The notes beneath the pieces were generated by a model. It saw only the letters and a program-made list of their open reading frames with translations, searched no databases and was not told the DNA's origin. A stretch of DNA of 64,000 nt, taken from assembly GCA_035573715.1 (NCBI GenBank), contig DATLZZ010000010.1, forward strand, positions 215,355 to 279,354, read 5' to 3'. Source of the stretch: Candidatus Xenobia bacterium (GTDB lineage: Bacteria; Acidobacteriota; Terriglobia; Acidiferrales; 2-02-FULL-67-57). Positions 9,746-40,873 of the stretch are shown one piece after another. The first letter of the stretch is position 1; the number at the start of each line of letters is the position of its first letter. Both the position numbers and the translations under genes were made by a program.

Positions 9746-10426
9746 TCAACGGCCAGTGCGGCCGGCGGCGCCCGGGCGCGACTGCCAGTAGAGCAGAATC
9801 AAATCGGTGCGGCGCTGCACGCCGAACTTGGCCAGCACGTTCGAGACGTGGAACTTGACCGTGCGCTCTGAGAGCGTCAGCCGCTGGGCGATTTCTTTGT
9901 TTGACATGTTGGCCAGCAGCGCCTCCAGCACTTCCTGCTCGCGCGGGCTGACGTAGGCGGGGCCGAAACTCCACCGCCGCGGGCCGAGGCCTTCCAGAAT
10001 CCAGTCGACGAACCGCGACAGCACCGGGCGCGGCACCCAGAACCCCCCGGCAGCGACGGCGCGCACCGCCTGCGCCAGTTGCGCCCGCGTCTGCGAGTAC
10101 GGCACCAAGCCCTTGGCGCCCAAGCGCAGGAGGGGAAAACTGTTGGCCTCGGTGAACTTCTCGGCCACGAGCAGCACGCGAGCCTTGGGTGAGCGCGAAA
10201 GGATGTTCGCCACCAGAGCTTCGGCGCCCGGGCGGGAGTCGGCGGCGTCAATCAGATAGAGCCGCGCTGAGGGCACCCGCCGGCGGCGAAGGTCGGAAGC
10301 CAGCCCCGACTCCAGGCGCACGGCGCGCACCGCGAAGCCGGCATCCGCCAGCAGGCGCTGCAGCTCGCTAAGCACCAGCGGATGCGAAGACAGCAAGCAC
10401 ACTGTCAGCCGGCCGCGGCCCGCCAT
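9746..10426 (-). CDS. LuxR-family response regulator (receiver-like domain plus HTH)
   Basis: C-terminal LuxR HTH (SPREQEVLEALLANMSNKEIAQRLTLSERTVKFHVSNVLAKFGV). Receiver-like N-domain with Asp (LYLIDAADS) but a weak acidic pocket. Confidence 0.7.
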   Translation of the reverse strand: MAGRGRLTVCLLSSHPLVLSELQRLLADAGFAVRAVRLESGLASDLRRRRVPSARLYLIDAADSRPGAEALVANILSRSPKARVLLVAEKFTEANSFPLLRLGAKGLVPYSQTRAQLAQAVRAVAAGGFWVPRPVLSRFVDWILEGLGPRRWSFGPAYVSPREQEVLEALLANMSNKEIAQRLTLSERTVKFHVSNVLAKFGVQRRTDLILLYWQSRPGAAGRTGR

Positions 10427-10473
10427 GCGTGGCACGCTACCCGAATTGTTGCCGCCGGGCAATAGTCTGTTGG

Positions 10474-10890
10474 TCAGTAATTCTGCCAGACGCCGGGAGT
10501 GGCGAGCTCGAGCAGGTGGCCGTCGGGGTCGCGGAAGTACAGGCTACGGCCGCCGAGCTCCCACTGCTTGCGCAGCTCGATGGCCAGCCCGTTCTGGCCC
10601 AGCCACCGCTCCCAGGCGTCGAAGTCTTCCGCCGCGATGGCGAAGGTGAGGTGGTCGGGGCCGGTGGTGTCAATCCCGCCGGGAAGAAAACCGCCTTCGT
10701 GCGAAACGCGCTCGATGGAAGCCCCCTGCTTGAACAGCAGCAGAACTTGCTGGGGCGCCACTGCCAGCGCGTGCAGCCGCTCGGAGGAGGCGATGACTTC
10801 AAAGCCGAAGATGCGACAGTAGAACTCGACCGCGCGCTTTACGTCCTGCACGAACAGGGCGGTCTCGAGAATCCCCTTCACCGGCGGCAT
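10474..10890 (-). CDS. VOC/glyoxalase-bleomycin resistance family protein
   Basis: Glyoxalase-like fold sequence (ALFVQDVKRAVEFYCRIFGFEV ... LYFRDPDGHLLEL). Start at an internal Met with a GGAGG Shine-Dalgarno. Confidence 0.75.
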   Translation of the reverse strand: MPPVKGILETALFVQDVKRAVEFYCRIFGFEVIASSERLHALAVAPQQVLLLFKQGASIERVSHEGGFLPGGIDTTGPDHLTFAIAAEDFDAWERWLGQNGLAIELRKQWELGGRSLYFRDPDGHLLELATPGVWQNY

Positions 10891-10945
10891 GGCGTTCACT
10901 CCGCGGAGGAATTGTAGCAGGTTGCGCGTGCTATCATCGAAGGCC

Positions 10946-11539
10946 GTGCTGCTGAATCGGATTGAGTACGCGCTGGTGAACAACCCGCTGCGGGCGCTGG
11001 TGCAGCGGCGCTTCGAGGCGCGGCGGCTGCTGCGCCTGGGCGGAGCCTTGAGCGGCGGCGTGGCGCTGGAGATGGGCTGCGGCCGCGGAGTCGGCGTGAG
11101 CCTCATTCTCGATGACTTTGGCGCCGAGCGCGTGGATGCGTTCGACCTCGACCCGCGCATGGTGGCGCTGGCTCGCAAGCGCCTCCACGCGCGCGCTGAG
11201 CATGTACGGCTCTGGGTGGGCGACGCGGCGCAGGTTCCCGTGCCGGACGCCACCTACGACGCGGTCTTCGATTTCGCCATCATTCATCACGTGCCCGGGT
11301 GGCGGCGCGCGGTGGCCGAAGTCCATCGGGTGCTCAAGCCCGGCGGGCGCTTCTACGCCGAAGAAGTGCTGGAGAAGTTCACCACGCACCCGATGGCGCG
11401 GCGACTGCTCGACCACCCCGCGGACGGTCGGTTCGACTCGGCCACCTTTGCCCAGGCGCTGCGCGACGTTGGCTTGAGGCCCCTCGCCTCGGAAACGCTC
11501 TGGCAGTCCTTCGCCTGGTTCGTTGCGGTCAAAATCTAG
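10946..11539 (+). CDS. class I SAM-dependent methyltransferase
   Basis: Motif I LEMGCGRGVG. Start moved to GTG to avoid overlap with the divergent VOC gene. Confidence 0.7.
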   Translation: MLLNRIEYALVNNPLRALVQRRFEARRLLRLGGALSGGVALEMGCGRGVGVSLILDDFGAERVDAFDLDPRMVALARKRLHARAEHVRLWVGDAAQVPVPDATYDAVFDFAIIHHVPGWRRAVAEVHRVLKPGGRFYAEEVLEKFTTHPMARRLLDHPADGRFDSATFAQALRDVGLRPLASETLWQSFAWFVAVKI

Positions 11540-11647
11540 AAAAGCCGACGGCGCGTGACAGACAGGTATGTCTGTCCTACCCCTCCATCAAATAGAGAAA
11601 GGGCCCCGACGCAGGGTCGGGGCCCTTTCCAGTCCCTTCGACCGGCC

Positions 11648-12256
11648 TTACTGACTGATGGCCAGGTCTTCCTTCAGGCGGAAGCGCAGGCGGGTTTCAG
11701 CCGGGTAGCGGATGTCGCGCTGCCCGGTGAGCGCCGCGGCACCGGTACCGCTGCCCGCGCCCACGCCGGCGCCGATGGCCGCCCCCTTGCCGCCGCCGGC
11801 CAGGCCGCCGATCAAGGCGCCCAAGCCGGTGCCGCCGCCGATGAACAGCACGTTGCGCTTCAGTTTGCTGCCCTCGCGGCGGCCGGTGGTCGAGGTTTCG
11901 ACGTCATAGCTATCGCCGTCCACCTCGACCTCGGTCAGGGTCATAAACAGCCGGCCACTGCCCTTGAAGCGGCCGGAGGCCTCGGCGTCAACCACTTCGC
12001 CGGTGACCTCCGAGCCAGCCGGGATGATCACCTTGTCGCCCACCACCACGTCGTGGTCGAGGACGCCGGTGAAGTCATCGCCCGGCTCATTGGTCTTGGA
12101 GCTCAAGCTCTGCGTCAGCCGCACGGTGAGCTCCGTCCCCGCCGGCACAATCACCGGTTCTGGCCTGAGTACGTAGGTGGCTCCCACAATCAGCGACGCT
12201 GCGAGCAGCACCGCTGCCGTGGCCACCCAAAGGCTCTTGCCCTTAGGAATGCGCAT
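11648..12256 (-). CDS. secreted glycine-zipper protein (paralog 2 of 3)
   Basis: Signal peptide, GLGALIGGLAGGGKGAAIGAGVGAGSG zipper. Same architecture as 6498-7139. Confidence 0.6.
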   Translation of the reverse strand: MRIPKGKSLWVATAAVLLAASLIVGATYVLRPEPVIVPAGTELTVRLTQSLSSKTNEPGDDFTGVLDHDVVVGDKVIIPAGSEVTGEVVDAEASGRFKGSGRLFMTLTEVEVDGDSYDVETSTTGRREGSKLKRNVLFIGGGTGLGALIGGLAGGGKGAAIGAGVGAGSGTGAAALTGQRDIRYPAETRLRFRLKEDLAISQ

Positions 12257-12407
12257 GATTGCTACCTCCAGGCGACGTGTCGCCCGTTTCAAGCCTAAAC
12301 AGAGGCCTTCGAGCCCCGAAAAGGTTGTCCGTTATTTCCTAAGTGTTTTACTTGCAAGAGATTAGCTCAGAAATCGAGCATTTTCCTGTCCGTGAGCCGG
12401 TCGCGCC

Positions 12408-12530
12408 GTGCGGTTTTTGCGGTTTTTGCGGTTTTCGCGGTTTTTGCGGTTTTGCCGTTGTCCCAGAAGGCCGGAAAAATTACAACCAGAAAAAAAACAA
12501 CCGCAAAAACCGCAAAAACCGCAAAAACCG
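12408..12530. repeat. inverted array of tandem 9-mers (GCGGTTTTT x5 ... AAACCGCAA x4)
   Basis: Direct tandem 9-bp repeats on one arm and their reverse complement on the other arm, separated by an A-rich spacer. Lies immediately upstream of the glucosaminidase operon. Confidence 0.7.
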
Positions 12531-14364: not shown

Positions 14365-15636
14365 TTGCGCATCACCTTTTGGGGGGTGCGAGGTTCTACT
14401 CCCACACCCGCGCGCCACACGTGGCGCTATGGGGGCAACACGCCGTGCGTCGAGCTGCGCCTGCCCGACCAACTGGTTTTGATTGACGCCGGCACCGGCA
14501 TCCGAGAGCTCGGCCAGCAGCTCCTCGCCGAAGCCCGCCCCGATTCGGCCGGTGCTCCGCCCAAGCCCATCAACGTCTCTCTGCTGTTCTCTCACTACCA
14601 CTGGGACCACATCCAGGGCCTACCGTTTTTCGCGCCCATCTATGCGCCCGGGAACACCGTTCGCCTTTACGGGCCGCGCTTCCGCGACGTCGCCGGCTCG
14701 TCGCTCTCGGCGGCGCTTCAAGCGCTGTTTTGCGCGCCGTTTTTCCCGGTGCTGGCCACCGACCTGCGCGCCGCCCATCCCATCGAAGAATTTGACGACA
14801 ACGCCAGCTTCTCGCTGGGCGATCTCCGGGTGCGCGCCTGCCGGGTCAATCACCCGCAGGGCTCGGTCGCCTATCGCTTCGAGCACGGCGGGGCTTCGGT
14901 CGTCTATGCGACCGACCACGAGCCGGGCAACGAGGAAATTGACCGGCGGCTGCGCAACTTCGCGCGCGGCGCCGACGTGCTTATCACCGACGCCCAGTAT
15001 TTCCCCGAGCAGCTTGTCGCCGAGCGCAAAGGCTGGGGCCACAGCTCGTGGCAGGCGGCCACCGAACTGGCGCGGGCGGCCGAGGTCAAGAACCTGATCC
15101 TCTTCCACCACGAGCCGACCCACAGCGACGAAGTGCTGGACGCGATTCTGGTTCGCGCCCGGGGGGCTTTTGCCAACACTCACTCGGCCACGGAAACGCT
15201 GGTGGTGGAGGTGCGCCGCCGGGAAGTGCTCTTCGCCAATCGCCCGGCGCGGCTCAGTCAGCGCGCCGACGTCCACCTGCCGGTCCACGTCGAGACCACG
15301 CAGGACGGCGCGCGGGTGCGGGAGGAGGCGTACCTGGCTAACCTCAGCTTCCACGGCGCCTATATCCTGAGCCCGCATCACTTCGAGCCCCAGCAGTCCA
15401 TCGAAATCGCCGTGCCGCTGCAGCCCGACCCGTCCGCCGCCACCGCTGCGCACCACGGGAAGGGAGCTCCGCCGGGAGAATTTCGCCTCAAAGGGGTGGT
15501 GCTGCGCACGGAGCCGCAGACGACCAACGGCCACTGGGAAGGCGTGGCGGTGATTTTCCCCGACGCCCAGGGCCGTGTCCCCGCCCAGCCGAAGGCGCCG
15601 CCCAAGCCCGGCCCCGACTCCGACACCACCTCGTAG
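14365..15636 (+). CDS. MBL-fold metallo-hydrolase (PhnP/RNase Z-like) fused to C-terminal PilZ domain (paralog 2)
   Basis: LRITFWGVRGS, SHYHWDH. PilZ motifs RLSQR and NLSFHG. TTG start with a GAGG Shine-Dalgarno. Confidence 0.75.
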   Translation: MRITFWGVRGSTPTPARHTWRYGGNTPCVELRLPDQLVLIDAGTGIRELGQQLLAEARPDSAGAPPKPINVSLLFSHYHWDHIQGLPFFAPIYAPGNTVRLYGPRFRDVAGSSLSAALQALFCAPFFPVLATDLRAAHPIEEFDDNASFSLGDLRVRACRVNHPQGSVAYRFEHGGASVVYATDHEPGNEEIDRRLRNFARGADVLITDAQYFPEQLVAERKGWGHSSWQAATELARAAEVKNLILFHHEPTHSDEVLDAILVRARGAFANTHSATETLVVEVRRREVLFANRPARLSQRADVHLPVHVETTQDGARVREEAYLANLSFHGAYILSPHHFEPQQSIEIAVPLQPDPSAATAAHHGKGAPPGEFRLKGVVLRTEPQTTNGHWEGVAVIFPDAQGRVPAQPKAPPKPGPDSDTTS

Positions 15637-15699
15637 GCCGCGACACCCCGCGCCGGTTTTTCTGCTAGACTAAGTGTTTGTTCGGAGGCAAGGGGTCCC

Positions 15700-15927
15700 A
15701 TGCGCGCCTATGTATTCGTCAACGTTAAGGCCGGGAAGGCCAAGGGGGTGGCAGGGAAGATCGCCGCGCTCAAAGGAGTGGTGCAGGCCGATCCCTGCTG
15801 GGGCACGCCCGACATCATTGCCGTCTGCGACGTCAAAAACGAGCGAGCGCTGAACGACCTCGTGTTCAACGAAATCTCCAAGCTCCCCGACGTTGAGCAC
15901 ACCGACACCCACATCACCCTCACCTAG
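15700..15927 (+). CDS. stand-alone Lrp/AsnC C-terminal (RAM) domain protein
   Basis: 75-aa protein resembling the ligand-binding domain of AsnC-family regulators (YVFVNVKAG ... DIIAVCDVKNERALNDLV). Confidence 0.5.
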   Translation: MRAYVFVNVKAGKAKGVAGKIAALKGVVQADPCWGTPDIIAVCDVKNERALNDLVFNEISKLPDVEHTDTHITLT

Positions 15928-15984
15928 TGCCGTTCCCATTACTCGGGTCCAGTGGCTCTTTACCCATGTCCCTCCGTGCCCACC

Positions 15985-16025
15985 TTGGAGAGCAGTCCCG
16001 ACGCAGACGGGACGAGTCGAGGGCT
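15985..16025. repeat. REP-like element copy (GAGCAGTCCCGACGCAGACGGGACGAGTCGAGGG)
   Basis: Near-identical architecture to 600-650. Confidence 0.55.
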
Positions 16026-16036
16026 CATCGGCGGCT

Positions 16037-16360
16037 TCAATCTTCTTCCCCCACTACACCGGCCTGCCATTCCTTCTGCACAGTGTCTCTGTAAACCAGC
16101 CAGCGGCCGCCGACGCGCCGGCCCGCCAACTGGCCCTCGTGGAGCCAGCGGTAAATCGTGTCGGGGGATTTCCCCAGGAGCTTCGCTGCGGCCACAGCCG
16201 AGATCAGCTCGCGCTTCTCCTGCTGGGCCAGCAGCGCGCGCGCCCTCTCGAACTGTGCGGACTTGGGCCGCTCTTCGTCCTTCGGCGGAAGCTTGGACGG
16301 CGGCGCAATCACCGCGAGCCTCTCCCCGTGGCCTGTCGCGCATCCATACTCGGCTCCCAT
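16037..16360 (-). CDS. HTH DNA-binding protein (excisionase/MerR-like)
   Basis: AAAKLLGKSPDTIYRWLHEGQLAGRRVGGRWLV helix-turn-helix. Start uncertain; overlaps the end of the Gam-like gene. Confidence 0.45.
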   Translation of the reverse strand: MGAEYGCATGHGERLAVIAPPSKLPPKDEERPKSAQFERARALLAQQEKRELISAVAAAKLLGKSPDTIYRWLHEGQLAGRRVGGRWLVYRDTVQKEWQAGVVGEED

Positions 16361-16998
16361 CGCTTTAGCGCCTCCCAGTTGAGTTCATAGAACCACTTCT
16401 CCCGTTGCTGCAACCGGACCCCGGCGCGCTGTAGCCTGCGACGCACTCGCGCCCCGGGCCCGTTCTTCCCCACGGCTTGGAGAAAGAACTGCCGCAAGGA
16501 GTCGCGATCGAGCTCCGTGCGGACGCGCAGGAACTGCTGGCCGGGGCGCCAATTGGCCAGAGCTCGCAAGGCGCGCGCTTCATCCTGGATGCTCACCGCG
16601 CGCGCCGTTCGATACCCCACGCGCCCAAACCGCAGCGTCCTTGACTTGCGCGCGTGCCCGTCGATCCGTGCCAACTCGTCGTGGCGGCGACAAAACTTCT
16701 CGATGGCCCTTTCCAGCCTCACCCGCTGGGACTCCAGCGGGGCCCGACGCGCGGAAATCTCCGATTCCAGTCGAGCCCGCGCCTCGGCCCCTGCTCTCTC
16801 GAGTGTGCCGAGTTGCAGGGTCAATTGCGCCAGTTGCAGGAGTGACTTCTCAACCTCCAACCAGCAGGAAACGGCCCCGCTCGCACGCGCCCTTGGCTTG
16901 CTTTGACCCGGGTGCGTGGCGCGGGGCTGGAAATGGTTCCAGGGGACGGGAAGGACTGGCTTTCGACTCGCCCGGCTACGGGAAGAAAGGGCTTGCAT
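16309..16998 (-). CDS. Mu Gam-like host-nuclease inhibitor family protein
   Basis: Coiled-coil N-region followed by KSRTLRFGRVGYRTARAVSIQDEARALRALANWRPGQQFLRVRTELDRDSLRQFF, which aligns with the Mu Gam core. Start uncertain. Confidence 0.55.
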   Translation of the reverse strand: MQALSSRSRASRKPVLPVPWNHFQPRATHPGQSKPRARASGAVSCWLEVEKSLLQLAQLTLQLGTLERAGAEARARLESEISARRAPLESQRVRLERAIEKFCRRHDELARIDGHARKSRTLRFGRVGYRTARAVSIQDEARALRALANWRPGQQFLRVRTELDRDSLRQFFLQAVGKNGPGARVRRRLQRAGVRLQQREKWFYELNWEALKRWEPSMDARQATGRGSR

Positions 16999-17031
16999 GT
17001 GACCCACCAATGAGCTACTATCGACTCGAAA

Positions 17032-17053
17032 GGTGTACACCTAACAGGTGTAC
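17032..17053. promoter_or_regulatory. candidate operator: perfect palindrome GGTGTACACC plus adjacent half-site AGGTGTAC
   Basis: Located in the 63-bp divergent intergenic region between the Gam-like gene and the cI-like repressor gene. Confidence 0.5.
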
Positions 17054-17061
17054 TTTGTCAA

Positions 17062-17832
17062 ATGGTTTCTGCGCGCGACAGTTGGCCAAGCAAAATCAAG
17101 CAGTTACGGGACTCGCTTGGCCTCTCGCAGGAGCAGTTGGCCCGCCGGCTTGAGGTAACCAAGAAGACGATTGCGGAATGGGAGCAGGCGCGGCAGGTAC
17201 CGAGCGCAGAGCGAGCTCTGCAACTGGCGCGGTTGGCCGCCCCGGGAGAGTTGCGTCGGTGGTTGATTCGGCAGGCGCTCGATCGGATCGGCGCCGATGA
17301 GGGTTTGCTTGAGGATGCCCTGGGCGCGCGACGGCGCGGCCGCCAGGCGCCGCTGCCGGTTGCCGGGTTGCGGGTAATTCCTTCCGCGGATCTGAGCGAC
17401 CGCTTTCGAGCGCTGGAGGGGCTGAGCGACTTTGTCCCGATTCCGTTGCTGCGGGACGCGGCGGCGGCGGGCTCACCGCGGGAAATTTCCGAGGAGGACA
17501 TCGAAGGCTACGCGATGATTCAATACGCGTGGTGCCCGAACCCGGCCGAGTTCACTTGCGTGCGGGTTCGCGGCGCTTCGATGTCGCCGATTCTGCTGGA
17601 TGGGGCGGTGGTGGCGATTGACCACTTGCAGCGCGACCCGCAGGCGCTGCACCAGAAAATGGTTGCCGCCCGCGTGGAGGATGGCGTGACCATCAAGTGG
17701 CTCAACCTCCAGCCCGACGGCTCTCTGCTCCTTGTCCCGGAGAACAAGAACTACCCTGCCATCCCGCTGCCGCGCACGCCCACAAACCCCATCGTGGGCC
17801 TGGTGGCCTGGTGGTGGAACCGACAGCGCTGA
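17062..17832 (+). CDS. phage cI/LexA-type repressor (XRE HTH plus S24 peptidase domain)
   Basis: N-terminal HTH (LRDSLGLSQEQLARRLEVTKKTIAEWE). C-terminal S24 domain with the Ser (GASMSP) and Lys (KWLNLQ) catalytic dyad context. Confidence 0.75.
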   Translation: MVSARDSWPSKIKQLRDSLGLSQEQLARRLEVTKKTIAEWEQARQVPSAERALQLARLAAPGELRRWLIRQALDRIGADEGLLEDALGARRRGRQAPLPVAGLRVIPSADLSDRFRALEGLSDFVPIPLLRDAAAAGSPREISEEDIEGYAMIQYAWCPNPAEFTCVRVRGASMSPILLDGAVVAIDHLQRDPQALHQKMVAARVEDGVTIKWLNLQPDGSLLLVPENKNYPAIPLPRTPTNPIVGLVAWWWNRQR

Positions 17833-34386: not shown

Positions 34387-34619
34387 GTGATCCAAACTCG
34401 TAGCCCCAGGCTCCTGCCTGAGGGAAAACCGCTCCGGATTCAATTCCCGGAGGCGAAGCCCCCGGGCTACGGGGCGGGGTTCGCTGTTCGGTTTGATTCT
34501 AAGCCTTGTCTCGACTTCTTGCCAGCAGCACGGCCGCGCCGTATACTCGCGCATCCGGTGCGCGAGGGGAGCCAGCAGCGCGCCGCCGGAGTGCGGGTAA
34601 ACCGAGGAGACAACGCCCG

Positions 34620-35885
34620 ATGGCCATCATCACCCCCGACAAAGAAATGGCTGTCTACGAAAACATGGGGGCGCGCTTTGACGTCGCCGCCGCCAGGCTG
34701 GGCCTCGATGAAGGCTTCCAGCACGTCCTGCGCAGCCCCAACAAAGAGATTACGCTTTACCTGCCGGTGGGGATGGATAACGGCAAGCTGGAGGTCTTTG
34801 TCGGCTACCGCGTGCAACACTCGATTGTGCGCGGGCCGGCCAAGGGCGGCATTCGCTACTCGCTCGACGTCACGCTCGACGAAGTCCGCGCCCTGGCCTC
34901 CTGGATGACCTGGAAGTGCGCGGTGGTCAACATTCCCTTCGGCGGCGCCAAAGGCGGCATCGTCTGCGACCCCAGCTCGCTGAGCCGGCGCGAGCTTGAG
35001 GCCATCACCCGGCGCTACACCGCCGAGCTGATGGACTTCCTCGGCCCCGAGCGCGACGTCCCCGCCCCCGACCTCGGCACCAACGAGCAGGTCATGGCCT
35101 GGGTGATGGACACCTATTCGATGCACATGCGCCACACCACCACGGCGGTGGTCACCGGCAAGCCGCTCGACCTCGGCGGCTCCCGCGGGCGCCGCGAGGC
35201 TACCGGGCGCGGCTGCCTCATCGTCACCGAGCGCCTGCTCAACAAGCTCAACCGGCGGCGCGAAGGCCAGCGCGTCGTCGTCCAGGGCTTTGGGAACGTC
35301 GGCTCGGTCTCCGCCAAGCTGATGGCCGAGGCGGGCTACAAGATTGTTGGCGTGGCCGACGTGCACGGGGCCATCTACAACCCCAAGGGCATTGACGTGC
35401 CGAAGCTGATTGAGTACGCGCTGGAGACCGGCACGGTGAAGGACTTCCCCGGCTGCGACAAGGTCAACCGGAACGAAGTGCTCTTCCTCGATTGCGACAT
35501 CCTGGTGCCGGCGGCGGTCGAGAACGTCATCACCAGCCACAACGCCGACCGCATCAAGGCCTCCATCATCATCGAGGCCGCCAACGGGCCCACCACCGCG
35601 CTGGCGGATGAGATTCTGGAAGACAAGAAGATTCACGTGGTGCCCGACATCCTGGCCAACGCCGGCGGCGTCACGGTCAGCTACTTCGAGTGGGTGCAGG
35701 ACCGCGAAGGCTACTTCTGGCCGGAGTCGCTGGTCAACGACCGCCTCGAGCACATGATGATCGAGAGCTTCGAGGACGTATACGCCTACGCGCAACGCCA
35801 CAACGTGAGCTTGCGCATCGCCGCCTATATGCTGGCGATTGACCGCGTCGCCTTCGCCCTCAAGCTCCGCGGCCTCTACGCCTGA
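34620..35885 (+). CDS. gdh: NAD(P)-dependent glutamate dehydrogenase
   Basis: GPAKGGIRY active-site motif and Glu/Leu/Phe/Val dehydrogenase domains. Confidence 0.9.
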
Positions 35886-35920
35886 GATTGGCCACCAAGT
35901 CACAAAGACACAAAGCAGTG

Positions 35921-36778
35921 ATGGTCGCGTTCTTCCTTTGTGCCTCCGTGTCTTTGTGGCCCGCCCCCTTGTCGGCGCAGAAGCCGGTGGACCGCGTGGA
36001 ACTCGAGTATCGCCCACCGACGCTGCTGGTGGAAGCCAAGGTGAACGGCAAGGGGCCGTTCTGGTTCGCCTTCGATACCGGCGCCAGCACCAGCCTGATT
36101 GACGCTCGCGTGTCACAACGGCTGAAGCTGAAGCCCGAGCAGCGGCCCGATCGCGAAGGGCCGTACTTCACCCGCGCGCGCACGCTGGCGGTGGGGAGAG
36201 CTAAGGCGCGCGACTTGGAACTGGTCATCCGCGACTTCGCGCCGCTCTCGGAGCGCATCGGGCGCGAGGTGGCCGGCATCGTCGGCTACAACTGGATGGA
36301 GCAGTTTGTGTTTGAGATTGATTACCGCAGCCTTCGGCTGACCATTTGGCCAAGCACCACAGAACTCATCCCGCGCGCGGACCAGTTTCCTGTGCCGCTC
36401 GAGCTGCGCTCGGTGCGCGGCCTCACCGGCGCCATCATTTATGTCCCGGCGCAGATGGAAGGCAAGCACCGCTGTCCGGCGGAAATTGACACCGGAACCG
36501 ACCTGGGAATACTCGGGCGGCAGATGGCGCTGGAGCTCGGCGTGGACGTCAACCGGCTCGGCGGGCAGCGGGAGCGCCCGCGGCATGAGGTGCGGCGGCT
36601 CGATGTCGCCGGGCGCACTTATGCGAATGTGCCCTTCTACGTCGACCCGCGCCGGGGCGCCGACGCCAATCCCTACGCCCAGTGCATCCTCGGCAACGAG
36701 GTGCTGAAAGAGTTTGTGCTGACAATTGACATCCCGCGCCGCCGCGCCTTCTTTCGCTGGCGACTGCCGCCGCCTTAG
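35921..36778 (+). CDS. secreted retropepsin-like aspartic protease (two DTG motifs)
   Basis: Signal peptide. FDTGAS and IDTGTD catalytic motifs. Confidence 0.7.
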   Translation: MVAFFLCASVSLWPAPLSAQKPVDRVELEYRPPTLLVEAKVNGKGPFWFAFDTGASTSLIDARVSQRLKLKPEQRPDREGPYFTRARTLAVGRAKARDLELVIRDFAPLSERIGREVAGIVGYNWMEQFVFEIDYRSLRLTIWPSTTELIPRADQFPVPLELRSVRGLTGAIIYVPAQMEGKHRCPAEIDTGTDLGILGRQMALELGVDVNRLGGQRERPRHEVRRLDVAGRTYANVPFYVDPRRGADANPYAQCILGNEVLKEFVLTIDIPRRRAFFRWRLPPP

Positions 36779-36831: not shown

Positions 36832-37728
36832 ATGCCTGAGACTCTCAGTCCCGGAAAGCTGAAAACCGAGGACGAGCACCGCCGCGACATCTGCCTGGTC
36901 GGCCGCTGGATTCACGCCCGCGAGTACGTGGCCGCCACCGACGGCAACCTTTCGGTGCGGCTGGACAACCAGCGGGTCCTGGCCACGCCGACGCTGATGT
37001 CGAAAGGCATGATGGAGCCCGACGACCTGGTGGTGGTCGATTACCAGGGCAACAAGCTCAGCGGGCGGCGCAACGCCTCCAGCGAAATCGCCATGCATCT
37101 GCTGATTTATCGTCGCCGCCCCGACGTGAACGCCGTCGTGCATGCTCACCCGCCCACCGCCACCGGCTACGCCGCCGCCGGGCTGGCGCTCAACCAGGCG
37201 CTCATCAGCGAAGTGGTGCTGGCGCTGGGCTGCATCCCGCTGGCGCAGTACGGCACGCCCGGCACGCCGGAGCTGTCCGATGCGTTGAGCCCGCTGGTCG
37301 GCAGCTACGACGCCCTGCTGATGGCCAACCACGGCGTCGTCACCTACGGCACCGACCTGCTCACCGCCTACATGCGGATGGAGACGGTGGAGCACTTCGC
37401 GCGCATTTCGCTGGTGACGCATCTGCTTGGCCGGCAGGTGCTGCTTTCCCGCGAGGAGGTGGAGAAGCTCGGCGAAGCGCGGCAGAAGTATTTCGGCAGC
37501 CTGGGAGCGCCGGTGGCGCCGCTGACGGAGTCCTGCCCGGTGGCGGCGAATCCTTCGCCGCCGCCGGCCGTGGCTTCCCCTCCGGCGACGGAGCGGAAGC
37601 CGGCCCACCCGTCCGCGGGCGGACGGATTGGATCGGTGCCTCGCGGCCCGCGGGACCGTCTCTGGGTGACGCAGGACGAGCTTGAAGCTCTCATTGACGA
37701 AGCCGTGAAATCTGGTAGAGTTCGCTAG
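36832..37728 (+). CDS. class II aldolase/adducin-family protein with C-terminal Pro-rich linker and amphipathic helix (BMC encapsulation peptide-like)
   Basis: Aldolase_II core (HAHPP, metal-binding His). C-terminal [17 protein letters not shown] linker followed by [19 protein letters not shown]. Confidence 0.8.
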
Positions 37729-37748
37729 ACCCGACAGGAGGAACCGGT

Positions 37749-38045
37749 ATGGGTGAAGCGCTGGGCATGATTGAGACTCGGGGGTTCGTGGCCATGATCG
37801 AGGCCTCCGACGCCATGGTGAAGGCGGCCAAGGTCACGCTGGTGGGCTGGGAGAAAATCGGTTCGGGCTACGTCACCGCGCTGGTGCGCGGCGACGTAGC
37901 GGCGGTGAAGGCCGCCACCGACGCCGGCGCTGCCGCGGCTCGCCGCGTCGGCGAACTGATTGCGGTGCACGTCATCCCGCGGCCGCACCCGTCGCTGGAA
38001 GACGTGCTGCCCATCGGCAAGGCCGCCGAGCTGGTCGCCCGCTAG
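37749..38045 (+). CDS. BMC-H shell protein (PduA/CcmK/EutM family)
   Basis: Canonical BMC domain ([25 protein letters not shown]). Confidence 0.9.
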
Positions 38046-38058
38046 GCGCGCTGCTCCC

Positions 38059-38080
38059 TCCGCCCAGCGGCCACGGCCGC
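38059..38080 (+). terminator. intra-operon hairpin CCCAGCGGCCACGGCCGCTGGG after the BMC-H gene
   Basis: Perfect 10-bp stem with a 3-nt loop, 14 nt after the BMC-H stop. No strong T-tract, so possibly a partial terminator or attenuator. Confidence 0.4.
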
Positions 38081-38176
38081 TGGGCCGCGCGGCCTTGTCG
38101 GGAGGGCACGACTCTTGTTGTGCCGTTCCGCGGGTTCTTTCTGTGGGGCTTTAGCCCCTGAGGGTTTTTCAAGCCT

Positions 38177-38479
38177 ATGCTCCTCGCTCGAGTCGTCGGA
38201 ACCGTCGTCGCCACCCGCAAAGACCCTCGCCTGGAAGGGAAGAAGCTGCTCATCGTGCGCACTATGACGCCGGACGGGAAAGAAGACGGCAACTATCTGG
38301 TCGCGGTGGACACGGTCCACGCCGGCGCGGGCGAAAAGGTTCTCATCGTCCAGGGCGGCTCGGCCCGCATGGCCGACGGCTGCAAGGACCGCCCAGTGGA
38401 CACCGCCATCATCGGCATCGTCGACACCGTCCGCCTCGACGAGCAGCCCGCCGCCGTCGCGGCCTCCGCCCCCAAGTAA
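38177..38479 (+). CDS. BMC-P vertex protein (EutN/CcmL family), paralog 1
   Basis: MLLARVVGTVVATRK ... characteristic EutN/CcmL fold sequence. Confidence 0.85.
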   Translation: MLLARVVGTVVATRKDPRLEGKKLLIVRTMTPDGKEDGNYLVAVDTVHAGAGEKVLIVQGGSARMADGCKDRPVDTAIIGIVDTVRLDEQPAAVAASAPK

Positions 38480-38752
38480 ATGCTGCTCGGCAAAGTCATC
38501 GGCAACGTGGTTTGCACGGTGAAGAACCCTGTGCTGGAAGGAATCAAGCTGCTGGTGGTGCAGCCGCTCGACCGCGCCGGCAAGCCGAAAGGCAAGCCGA
38601 TGATCGGGCTCGATGCCGTGGGCGCGGGCGCCGGCGAGACGGTTTACTGGTGCCGCGGGCGCGAGGCCAGCTTCGTCTGGTATCCCACCGAGGTGCCAAC
38701 GGAGTGCACCATCGTCGCCATAGTCGACCGCGTAGAAACAGAGAAAGGGTAA
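38480..38752 (+). CDS. BMC-P vertex protein, paralog 2
   Basis: MLLGKVIGNVVCTVK ... EutN/CcmL family. Confidence 0.85.
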   Translation: MLLGKVIGNVVCTVKNPVLEGIKLLVVQPLDRAGKPKGKPMIGLDAVGAGAGETVYWCRGREASFVWYPTEVPTECTIVAIVDRVETEKG

Positions 38753-38848
38753 CCACAGATTCACACAGATGAACACAGATAAGGAACGCCGACAAAAGCA
38801 GGGACTGTTTGTGTTTTTCCTCTGTGTGTATCTGTGTGCATCTGTGGT
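38753..38848 (+). promoter_or_regulatory. ~27-bp imperfect inverted repeat (CCACAGATTCACACAGATGAACACAGA ... TCTGTGTGTATCTGTGTGCATCTGTGG) between BMC-P2 and BMC-P3
   Basis: CACAGAT-repeat palindrome with a ~40-nt loop, directly between two shell genes. Confidence 0.5.
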
Positions 38849-38860
38849 TTCGAATTCTCC

Positions 38861-39130
38861 ATGCTGATTGGCAGAGTCATCGGCGAGGTGTGGGCGACGC
38901 AGAAGACGCCCTCGCACGAGGCGCGCAAGTGCCTCTACGTGCAGCCGCTGGCGCTCGACGGCGCCGACCGCGGCGACCCGATCCTGGCGCTCGACGCGGT
39001 GGATGCCGGCGTGGGCGACCGCGTGCTGGTGGTCACTGAAGGCTACTCGGCCATGACGGCGGTGGGCCGCCCCAATTCGCCCATCGATATGGCCGTCGTC
39101 GGCGTCGTCGACGCGGTCGAGCTCGACTAG
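38861..39130 (+). CDS. BMC-P vertex protein, paralog 3
   Basis: MLIGRVIGEVWATQK ... EutN/CcmL family. Confidence 0.8.
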   Translation: MLIGRVIGEVWATQKTPSHEARKCLYVQPLALDGADRGDPILALDAVDAGVGDRVLVVTEGYSAMTAVGRPNSPIDMAVVGVVDAVELD

Positions 39131-39172: not shown

Positions 39173-39772
39173 ATGATTGGGTACCTGCGCGGAACCATCC
39201 TTTCCAAAAAGCCCTACGAAATTCTTCTCGATGTGAACGGCGTGGGTTACGAGCTGCGCGTGCCCTATTCGACCTCGCAACTCCCCGCCAGTGGCAGGGA
39301 GCTGAGCCTGGTGGTGCATACCCACGTGCGCGAGGATGCGATTACGCTCTACGGCTTCAAGACCGCCGCCGAGCGCGAAATGTTCCACCAGCTGCTGACG
39401 GTAAAAAACGTGGGGCCGAAGATGGCGCTGATGGTGCTGGCGGCGGTCGCACCGGCCGACATCACCAACGCCATCCGGCGCAACAACCCGCTGGCGCTGG
39501 TGGTGCCGGGCATCGGGCCGAAAACGGCCGAGCGCATCGTGCAGGAACTGCGCACCAGCTTGGTTTCGGTCGAGGCCGAGGCCACGCCGGCGCCGGGGCC
39601 GCCGCTCAGCGATGCGGCCGAAGAGGCTGTCTCGGCGCTGGAGAACATGGGATGTGACCCCAAGCTCGCCCAGAAGGCCGTGCGGGAGGTGCTACAATCG
39701 TCGAAGAGCGAAGCTGGATTCGAAGTGCTGATGAAAGGGGCGCTGCAGTGGCTACGAGAGAAAAGGCGATAG
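39173..39772 (+). CDS. ruvA: Holliday junction branch-migration protein RuvA
   Basis: MIGYLRGTI ... OB-fold, tandem HhH domains, and C-terminal domain. Confidence 0.9.
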   Translation: MIGYLRGTILSKKPYEILLDVNGVGYELRVPYSTSQLPASGRELSLVVHTHVREDAITLYGFKTAAEREMFHQLLTVKNVGPKMALMVLAAVAPADITNAIRRNNPLALVVPGIGPKTAERIVQELRTSLVSVEAEATPAPGPPLSDAAEEAVSALENMGCDPKLAQKAVREVLQSSKSEAGFEVLMKGALQWLREKRR

Positions 39773-39802: not shown

Positions 39803-40873
39803 ATGGGGAAGAGAAAGGAAGCCATCGAGGTCCGGCCGGCGGCGCCGCATCCGAGCGGAATTCTCTCGGGCGCGGCGCTGGACGACGACCGGCAATTCGA
39901 AGCCTCGGTCCGCCCGCAGCTTCTCAAGGACTTCATCGGCCAGGCGAAATTGAAGGAGAATCTCTCCATCGCTGTCGAAGCCGCGCGCTCGCGGGGTGAT
40001 GCGCTCGACCACGTCCTGCTCAGCGGTCCGCCCGGCCTCGGCAAGACCACGCTCGCCTACGTGCTCGCCAACGAGCTGGGCGTGCGCATCGAAACCACCT
40101 CGGGGCCGGTGCTGGAGCGCCCGCTCGACCTCTCGACCATTCTCTCCGTGCTGGAGCGCCGCCAGGTGCTGTTCATTGACGAACTCCACCGTCTGTTGCC
40201 GGCCGTCGAAGAGATCCTTTATCCGGCGCTCGAAGATTTCAAAATCGACATGATTGTCGGCAAGGGTCCGGGCGCGCGCACGCAGGTCTATCGCCTGGAG
40301 CGGTTCACGCTGGTGGGGGCGACGACCCGCACCGGGCTGGTCACCAAGCCGCTGCTCTCGCGCTTCGGGATCGTGCATCGGCTGGACTTTTATCCCGTGG
40401 CCGACCTCCAAACCATTGTTACGCGCGCCGCGGGCATCCTGGGCATCGCGATTGACTCCGGCGGCGCGGAAGAGATTGCCCGGCGCTCGCGCGGCACCCC
40501 GCGCGTTGCCAACCGGCTGTTGCGGCGGGTGCGCGACTTCGCCCAGGTGCGCGCCGGCGGCAGCATCAACCGCACCGTGGCCAGGGACGCGCTGGCGATG
40601 CTGGATGTGGACGAGTACGGGCTCGACGAGCTTGACCGAAAGATTCTCTTGACGGTAATCGAAAAATACGGCGGCGGGCCGGTCGGTCTCAACACCATCG
40701 CCGCCTCCATCAGCGAAGAGGCCGACGCGCTGGAAGAAGTCTACGAGCCCTACCTGATGCAGATTGGGTTCCTGAACCGCACCCCGCGCGGGCGGGTTGC
40801 GACCGAGCTGGCCTACAAACACTTCGGGAAGCTGCCTCCTACCCCCAGCGCTCCCCCCCTCTTCAGCTCCTAA
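39803..40873 (+). CDS. ruvB: Holliday junction DNA helicase RuvB
   Basis: Walker [12 protein letters not shown], Walker [10 protein letters not shown], winged-helix C-terminus. Confidence 0.95.

Follow-up and report, generated by a model that had tools for sequence, protein, structure and literature searches.

What kind of microcompartment is encoded by an aldolase gene followed only by one hexamer and three pentamer shell genes? The question is raised by a 64-kb stretch of DNA, hereafter the window, from the assembly of Candidatus Xenobia bacterium (GCA_035573715.1, contig DATLZZ010000010.1, positions 215,355 to 279,354), a soil acidobacterium that GTDB places in the class Terriglobia. At positions 36832-39130 there are five adjacent and tightly packed genes, all on the + strand, which encode a class II aldolase, a bacterial microcompartment (BMC) hexamer protein (BMC-H) and three pentamer proteins (BMC-P; here P1, P2 and P3). 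Their sequences and order suggest that the window probably contains the main locus, that is, the shell and the signature enzyme, of a microcompartment of the ACI type, in a reduced arrangement found in Terriglobia. The genes were called from a list of open reading frames (ORFs) and Pfam profile searches in a window with 64-69% G+C, and earlier gene calls match these to the base (Table 1).

The five-gene core and its assignment to the ACI type

By Pfam and tblastn, the window has a single PF00936 gene. In its translation, the standard edge motifs of BMC-H (KAAK and PRPH) are present, along with the GSG pore motif. The pairwise identity among the three BMC-P proteins is only 40-45%, and therefore they are distinct paralogues, as a first-pass annotation made from the sequence alone had proposed. 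The third one almost certainly starts at an ATG inside a longer mechanical ORF that opens with GTG, since residues 1-9 of that ORF lie outside the Pfam match and the orthologues begin with M-[IL]-I-G-R-V. With this start, P2 and P3 are separated by 108 nt; the other gaps are 20 nt between aldolase and BMC-H and 131 nt between BMC-H and P1. The TAA stop of P1 abuts the ATG of P2, which suggests translational coupling. The exact BMC-H protein was found on 8 public contigs, in 7 of them beside the aldolase and/or BMC-P genes, and the sole neighbor gene in the other one (L096 in our numbering of loci) is not annotated. The exact aldolase was found in public assemblies only on a single 2-kb contig, with no further genomic context.

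No other microcompartment gene was found anywhere in the 64 kb, either by Pfam (about 50 ORFs in all) or by six-frame tblastn. The tblastn queries were two BMC aldehyde dehydrogenases (AldDh), a phosphotransacylase (PTAC), an iron-containing alcohol dehydrogenase (Fe-ADH), two 2-hydroxyacid dehydrogenases, BMC-T, BMC-H and BMC-P, and with E <= 1 they matched only the four shell genes. Acetate kinase was not found in the window by Pfam scans of the major ORFs, which were the only search that covered it, with no tblastn query. These results agree with much of the first-pass annotation. Pfam and the synteny described below confirm that the microcompartment locus is real and that it combines a single BMC-H with three BMC-P and an aldolase bearing a putative encapsulation tail. 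The neighbors that had been named, a GDH, a secreted aspartic protease and ruvAB, agree in coordinates and domains, and the reported lack of AldDh, PTAC, acetate kinase (by Pfam scans only) and alcohol dehydrogenase extends to the whole window.

The ACI type was described by Sutter, Melnicki, Schulz, Woyke & Kerfeld (2021, Nat Commun 12:3809; PMC8217296) from 125 loci, exclusively in Acidobacteria, and its function is unknown. In the published main locus, a PF00596 aldolase whose C-terminus bears an encapsulation peptide (EP) is accompanied by a 2-hydroxyacid dehydrogenase (PF00389/PF02826), and the shell consists of one BMC-H with standard motifs and three BMC-P, which are almost always adjacent (PMC8217296). 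Accessory genes encode a protein of about 80 aa, whose N-terminus is helical and in which three cysteines are conserved, and other proteins of unknown function (PMC8217296). The AldDh of this type, with an EP near its C-terminus, is consistently found at a separate satellite locus, where satellite means distal from the main locus; a locus with both BMC-H and BMC-P is a main locus by definition (PMC8217296).

The window contains both BMC-H and BMC-P and is therefore a main locus under this definition. The first-pass annotation had considered it a satellite shell locus, a term that in the ACI type applies to the locus of the AldDh (PMC8217296). The acidobacterial host, the PF00596 aldolase with a tail that resembles a C-terminal EP in architecture, and the single BMC-H with standard motifs are all as published for ACI. 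An adjacent BMC-P triplet is present, and its likeness to that of ACI is read here from positional matches.

An exhaustive search of 1.84 billion representative proteins returned more distant aldolases, whose loci were typed by gene content, and genomic context was retrieved for three canonical ACI loci. The first (L084/L085) encodes a small transmembrane protein with three cysteines, the aldolase, H, P, P, P and an 87-aa protein whose N-terminal helix is amphipathic and which has three cysteines. The second (L086) reads small cysteine protein, aldolase, H, P, P, P and a 313-aa 2-hydroxyacid dehydrogenase (2-Hacid_dh), and the third (L087) small cysteine protein, aldolase, H, P, P, P. They were typed as canonical ACI because this content matches the published description. 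Identity between the window and these loci (L084, L086, L087) is 84-89% for H, 63-65% for P1, 46-53% for P2, 49-51% for P3 and 41-46% for the aldolase. In all three, the best match of each BMC-P of the window is the P gene in the same position, and therefore the five-gene core of the window is orthologous to the ACI core.

Two further loci, retrieved as candidates for the PVM type of Planctomycetes and Verrucomicrobia, proved to be HO-like (L088) and PVM-like (L089), so the comparison with PVM rests on its published description. The former, similar to HO type II, reads regulator, Tdp, H, P, AldDh, P, P, aldolase, Tdp, and its identity with the window is 77% for H, 41-45% for P and 40% for the aldolase. 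The latter contains an aldolase, AldDh, four H, PTAC and one P, with 67-69% (best two of the four H), 34-42% and 40% identity, respectively.

The small cysteine protein directly upstream of the aldolase, with the motif D[PRK][VI]C...[YF][FY]CSxxC, was found in L084-L087 only (L084 9701-9976, L086 9735-10004, L087 112-357). Its N-terminal hydrophobic helix looks transmembrane, and its C-terminal motif (DPVC...YFCSxxC) appears to resemble YHS/TRASH-type metal-binding domains. As for the 2-Hacid_dh, the only one near any of the 79 Terriglobia loci is found in L012 (7158-8459), two genes upstream of the aldolase. It is a 433-aa protein in which a weak PilZ-like N-terminal part is fused to 2-Hacid_dh, a possible link to the dehydrogenase of canonical ACI loci.

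The aldolase and its C-terminal tail

The catalytic core of the aldolase comprises residues 1 to ~221, and the protein has about 85 further residues beyond the core. The metal-site residues E85, H104, H106 and H167 are invariant in 22 aligned homologues, and by these positions the class II metal site is intact. The core is followed by a linker in which 34 of 54 residues (63%) are P, A, G or S. Among the same homologues, its length varies by up to ~35 residues, and yet the CPV motif is invariant. In the helix that ends the protein, R276, E283, L284 and E285 are invariant, L287, I288, E290 and A291 are at least 90% conserved, and the helical hydrophobic moment of 0.55 is the second highest in the aldolase.

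An AlphaFold2 model made from the 22 close homologues is of low confidence and was used only for the secondary structure of the tail. It has coil at residues 225-280, with a predicted local distance difference test (pLDDT) score below 50 in the linker, and a helix at residues 281-297. The tail motif TLTRxELxxLIxxAV is common to the window aldolase and the aldolases of canonical ACI loci, and many of the more distant aldolases carry a similar C-terminal motif. A linker followed by a conserved helix matches the textbook architecture of encapsulation peptides as summarised in PMC8217296. By architecture and conservation, we consider the C-terminal helix a candidate encapsulation peptide.

Conservation, loss and genomic setting in Terriglobia

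With one genome scanned per species, at least 589 relatives were found, and the locus counts given here cover the best 79. The complete set aldolase-H-P1-P2-P3 occurs in the same order in 55 of these 79 species loci, mostly between gdh and ruvAB, and therefore the cluster is not a product of chance. In relatives with 87% and 73% aldolase identity, the order is gdh-(protease)-aldolase-H-P1-P2-P3-ruvA-ruvB. The Terriglobia flanks consist of housekeeping genes, identified partly by sequence reading (YvcK-like, TPR, MglA-like, STAS, gdh, ruvC/A/B, queA, pyrR/B/C and polA).

BMC-H identity is 89-98% in the 79 loci of the scan and reaches 100% in the closest relative (L002), from which the genes of the window have synonymous divergences (dS) of 0.18-0.63. 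The ratio of nonsynonymous to synonymous divergence (dN/dS) between both is 0 for BMC-H (dN 0, dS 0.18), 0.11 for P1, 0.16 for P2, 0.10 for P3 and 0.10 for the aldolase; for the neighbors it is 0.05 (ruvA), 0.06 (ruvB) and 0.17 (gdh). Judging from these ratios and the reading frames, the five cluster genes are intact and under purifying selection comparable to that on ruvAB and gdh. The pseudogenization of the shell genes, which the first-pass annotation had named as what would refute it, is at odds with ORFs that are intact and with dN/dS of 0-0.16.

On the other hand, 21 of the 79 species loci have no shell gene at the site and read gdh-aldolase-ruvAB or similar, and a 22nd one (L078) shows none either, on a contig too short to tell. 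These loci are L038, L048, L053, L059, L060, L062, L064-L066, L068, L069, L072-L076 and L078-L083, with the aldolase at ~10001-10800 in most of them. Partial shell sets were also found, with H only in L055 and H, P1 and P2 in L008 and L017. Of the near-complete MAG contigs, CAVXCJ010000002.1 (4.36 Mb) and CAVTRV010000002.1 (3.73 Mb) are shell-positive and CAVUBX010000005.1 (3.43 Mb) is shell-negative. In the aldolase tree, the shell-less loci form at least five separate clades nested among the complete loci, and the canonical ACI loci fall outside the Terriglobia clade. The cysteine of the linker motif is kept in 53 of 56 complete loci versus 8 of 22 shell-less ones, counts that are not phylogenetically independent. 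In the shell-less genomes, either the shell genes moved elsewhere in the genome or the helix works without a shell.

In L052, the whole aldolase-H-P1-P2-P3 module is present twice (10001-12435 and 14881-17341), as slightly diverged copies 4.9 kb apart. Either the module was duplicated in one piece or the assembly is at fault.

Two spacers inside the cluster are structured. The spacer between BMC-H and P1, with a minimum free energy (MFE) of -73.4 kcal/mol as RNA (z = -3.9), contains a terminator-like site according to our scan. It is long (~100-390 nt) in most relatives, and a canonical intrinsic terminator after BMC-H was found in only 6 of 59 related loci and is not a conserved feature. This spacer is a possible attenuator, which would lower pentamer expression. 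Between P2 and P3 there is a hairpin whose motif is found within the window only there, as its two arms. It is kept at the same position in L002, where a change from CACAG to CGCAG in one arm is mirrored by CTGTG to CTGCG in the other, and the motif also follows P2 in L003. The hairpin may act in RNA stability or processing, or it may be a REP-like (repetitive extragenic palindromic) repeat. In an Rfam search of both spacers, no family reached the threshold; sub-threshold matches to microRNA models were rejected as chance. Among the cluster genes, BMC-H alone is preceded by a strong Shine-Dalgarno sequence, AGGAGG at a distance of 7 nt, which together with the structured spacers would probably set a high hexamer-to-pentamer ratio.

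In some relatives, small unrelated genes are found between the BMC-P genes, among them short ORFs and the genes of a HicB-like antitoxin and of a four-helix-bundle protein (23S_rRNA_IVP). The insert sites are at 6801-7001 in L002 and at 11568-11714 and 12090-12566 in L003, and a 160-aa ORF lies between P1 and P2 in L015. By their position, the spacers between P genes appear to be insertion hot spots.

Two neighboring genes were considered as cargo and rejected. The GDH has no terminal extension once its start is corrected to that of the 421-aa orthologues. Asp_protease_2 has a signal peptide and is present only in the subclade of the window (L001-L006). As gdh adjoins the aldolase directly in most relatives, this protease is a lineage-specific insertion outside the system. 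Pfam scans of about 40 further ORFs of the window returned ordinary genes, such as polA, lpxC, gatB, panC, flotillin, glycosyltransferases, an amidohydrolase and a permease.

The named sequences among the best 120 aldolase homologues belong to Acidobacteria, Terriglobia or Ca. Acidoferrales metagenome-assembled genomes (MAGs), with 88-60% identity. Likewise, the species loci bear the labels Terriglobia, Ca. Acidiferrales or Terriglobales in 77 of 79 cases, and all 79 share the Terriglobia synteny. The two odd labels, Bacillota (L017) and Ca. Dormiibacterota (L074), belong to loci with the typical gdh-aldolase(-shell)-ruv synteny, and the arrangement of L017 is nearly identical to that of L008. 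Both are probably mis-binned contigs in public MAGs.

Table 1. Features of the cluster and its neighbors, with their positions in the window
Feature	Position	Strand	Description
gdh, glutamate-type ELFV dehydrogenase	34506-35885 (real start probably M39, 34620)		upstream of aldolase
Asp_protease_2 with signal peptide	35888-36778		between gdh and aldolase
Class II aldolase/adducin-family enzyme, presumed cargo	36832-37728	+	298 aa; PF00596 Aldolase_II, E = 7e-47, residues 19-193
Aldolase linker, residues 222-275	37495-37656	+	Pro/Ala/Gly/Ser-rich, variable length, Cys-Pro-Val motif (C235)
C-terminal amphipathic helix, residues 276-298, encapsulation-peptide candidate	37657-37725	+	by conservation and hydrophobic moment
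BMC-H, hexamer shell protein	37749-38045	+	98 aa; PF00936, E = 3e-30
BMC-H/P1 structured spacer	38046-38176	+	three hairpins, the last (38144-38160) followed by a T-run
BMC-P paralogue 1 (P1)	38177-38479	+	100 aa; PF03319 EutN_CcmL, E = 7e-31
BMC-P paralogue 2 (P2)	38480-38752	+	90 aa; PF03319, E = 3e-26
P2/P3 hairpin	38751-38849	+	~100 nt, near-perfect; MFE -52.4 kcal/mol, z = -6.4
BMC-P paralogue 3 (P3)	38861-39130 (mechanical GTG ORF from 38834)	+	89 aa from ATG 38861; PF03319, E = 1e-24
ruvA	39173-39772		downstream of P3
ruvB	39803-40873		downstream of ruvA

Alternative readings and comparison with known types

Several results weigh against the ACI assignment. Neither Pfam (about 50 ORFs) nor tblastn (E <= 1) detected the 2-Hacid_dh of the published type in the window, it is also absent from 78 of the 79 Terriglobia loci, and the motif of the small cysteine protein is absent from the window and all 79. 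Searches with Prosite-style motifs and tblastn with an HO-type AldDh found no AldDh within 10 kb on either side of the aldolase in the loci L001-L087. The loci without shell genes keep the C-terminal helix in full, and it may therefore have a shell-independent role. The structure model of the aldolase is weak, with a mean pLDDT of 54. Finally, the aldolase reaches no NCBIfam equivalog cut-off, including that of the RhaD model. Its best scores are 126 bits for the OtnC decarboxylase (cut-off 250), 118 for FucA (264) and 109 for the ribulose-5-P 4-epimerase subfamily model (251), and its nearest solved structures are FucA/DrdA-like aldolases (6btd, 95 bits). Therefore, only a reaction of the ketose-phosphate aldolase type is inferred from the sequence, with no assignment to fuculose or rhamnulose in particular.

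In those searches, the sole match to the AldDh motifs was a 509-aa protein of L078, which was rejected because it belongs to no Pfam family at all. Among all loci compared, AldDh was found only in L088 and L089.

For the ACI locus that we favor, the following mechanism can be proposed. The BMC-H hexamers would tile the facets of a polyhedral protein shell, with the three BMC-P paralogues capping its vertices. The amphipathic helix, on its flexible Pro/Ala-rich linker, would draw the aldolase into the lumen, where it would cleave a ketose-1-phosphate into dihydroxyacetone phosphate (DHAP) and a short aldehyde. This aldehyde would be held in the shell and oxidised by an EP-bearing AldDh, encoded at a separate locus outside the window, as published for ACI. 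Core enzymes encoded elsewhere, which the first-pass annotation had offered as one of two options, is the reading favored by the literature.

Its other option was a shell around a reduced pathway. Here the shell would enclose the aldolase alone or together with untagged enzymes, as a self-contained minimal organelle whose reduced or different pathway has no dedicated AldDh. In line with this, no accessory or core enzyme is found within 10 kb on either side in the 79 species loci, the ACI accessory genes are systematically missing from them, and the five-gene module is a conserved unit, apparently duplicated as such in L052. However, encapsulating an enzyme that makes aldehyde without one that consumes it has no known rationale, and the absence of an AldDh nearby is expected if, as published, that of ACI is consistently distant. 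We regard such an organelle as unlikely. A broader proposal is that in Terriglobia ACI shrank to a portable module of five genes, which would work as an optional addition to a resident aldolase linked to housekeeping genes. Then either the helix would have a shell-independent function (aldolase self-assembly, for instance), or the module would be a true single-cargo microcompartment without a dedicated AldDh; we find this rather unlikely as well. The loss of shell genes at the site in at least five related lineages, the partial sets in L055 and L008/L017 with the aldolase retained, and the small unrelated genes inserted between P genes in relatives could also be signs of a decaying or silent remnant, in which the shell genes are unused and the aldolase is an ordinary cytosolic enzyme. 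Such a remnant would not be expected to have five intact ORFs, dN/dS values equal to those of the housekeeping neighbors, a BMC-H protein 100% identical to that of L002 despite a dS of 0.18, or a complete ordered set in 55 species. Moreover, the retention of the linker cysteine mostly where shells exist suggests active constraint there, and decay seems very unlikely.

The first-pass annotation had assigned the locus to the PVM type, as a satellite shell locus of a microcompartment for fucose and rhamnose. A C-terminally tailed aldolase and a BMC-P triplet are indeed common to the window and PVM, and one acidobacterial locus (Ca. Sulfotelmatomonas) was typed PVM in the BMC-P tree of Sutter et al. 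(PMC8217296). The triplet is not a PVM signature, as had been assumed, since triplets are also reported in the ACI, HO, SPU, FRAG, MIC and MUF2 types (PMC8217296). PVM is confined to Planctomycetes and Verrucomicrobia and has two BMC-H (PMC8217296, Suppl. Data 2); its first P belongs to the purple (PvmH) clade, and AldDh, PTAC and a kinase are within the locus (PMC8217296). In contrast, the window has a Terriglobia host, one BMC-H, no AldDh, PTAC or kinase in 64 kb, and shell genes that are positional orthologues of ACI cores, with H and P together as in a main locus. The TLTRxELxxLIxxAV tail is also that of ACI loci, unlike the ..LIxxITxxVxxxL tail of more distant aldolases, two of which come from complete, AldDh-containing metabolosome loci (HO-like L088 and PVM-like L089). 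PVM is required for growth on L-fucose or L-rhamnose. For the window, this sugar assignment is not supported either, with the aldolase below every NCBIfam cut-off, those of FucA and RhaD included. Taken together, a PVM-type satellite appears highly improbable.

ACI is one of the larger microcompartment types without a known function, in one of the most abundant soil phyla, and its Terriglobia form is the smallest natural arrangement, with one putatively tagged enzyme, one hexamer and three pentamers. It offers a compact starting point for the reconstitution of an ACI shell, for the tail as a targeting signal and for the role of three pentamers. The sister lineages with and without shells, which have the same aldolase, also open a route by comparative genomics, since missing partners such as the AldDh would be expected among the genes whose presence follows that of the shell. 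The gains are incremental, since the ACI type was already catalogued.

Among the other known types, the FRAG loci (PMC8217296) resemble the window in their BMC-P triplets, in having few or no enzymes beside the shell genes and in components scattered over the genome. However, they have no defined organisation and usually no EP-bearing aldolase, whereas the window belongs to a strict and conserved five-gene module. Like the window, the HO type (Haliangium ochraceum; here the HO-like L088) combines a single BMC-H and three BMC-P with a PF00596 aldolase that bears a helix at its C-terminus, but L088 also encodes an AldDh whose EP is N-terminal, two BMC-T(dp) and a regulator, and its shell proteins are more distant (H 77%, P 41-45%). 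With PVM (Planctopirus limnophila, Verrucomicrobia), known here from its published description, the window has in common a class II aldolase with a C-terminal tail as signature enzyme and the BMC-P triplet. Both systems probably share a general logic in which a dehydrogenase uses up the aldehyde that the aldolase releases, but the two BMC-H, the AldDh, PTAC and kinase within the locus, and the planctomycete or verrucomicrobial host of PVM have no counterpart in the window.

The closest likeness is with ACI itself, in the acidobacterial host, the PF00596 aldolase with its putative EP tail, the single BMC-H followed in the same order by three adjacent and distinct BMC-P, and a main locus without AldDh, both as published and in the window. 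On the other hand, the window differs in having no 2-hydroxyacid dehydrogenase, no small transmembrane/EP protein with three cysteines and none of the other unknown proteins, and its aldolase is only 41-46% identical to the canonical ones. Its clade is Terriglobia, with the site mostly between gdh and ruvAB, whereas ACI is known mainly from subdivisions 4 and 6. What is new in relation to the catalogued type is this reduced, minimal arrangement in Terriglobia.

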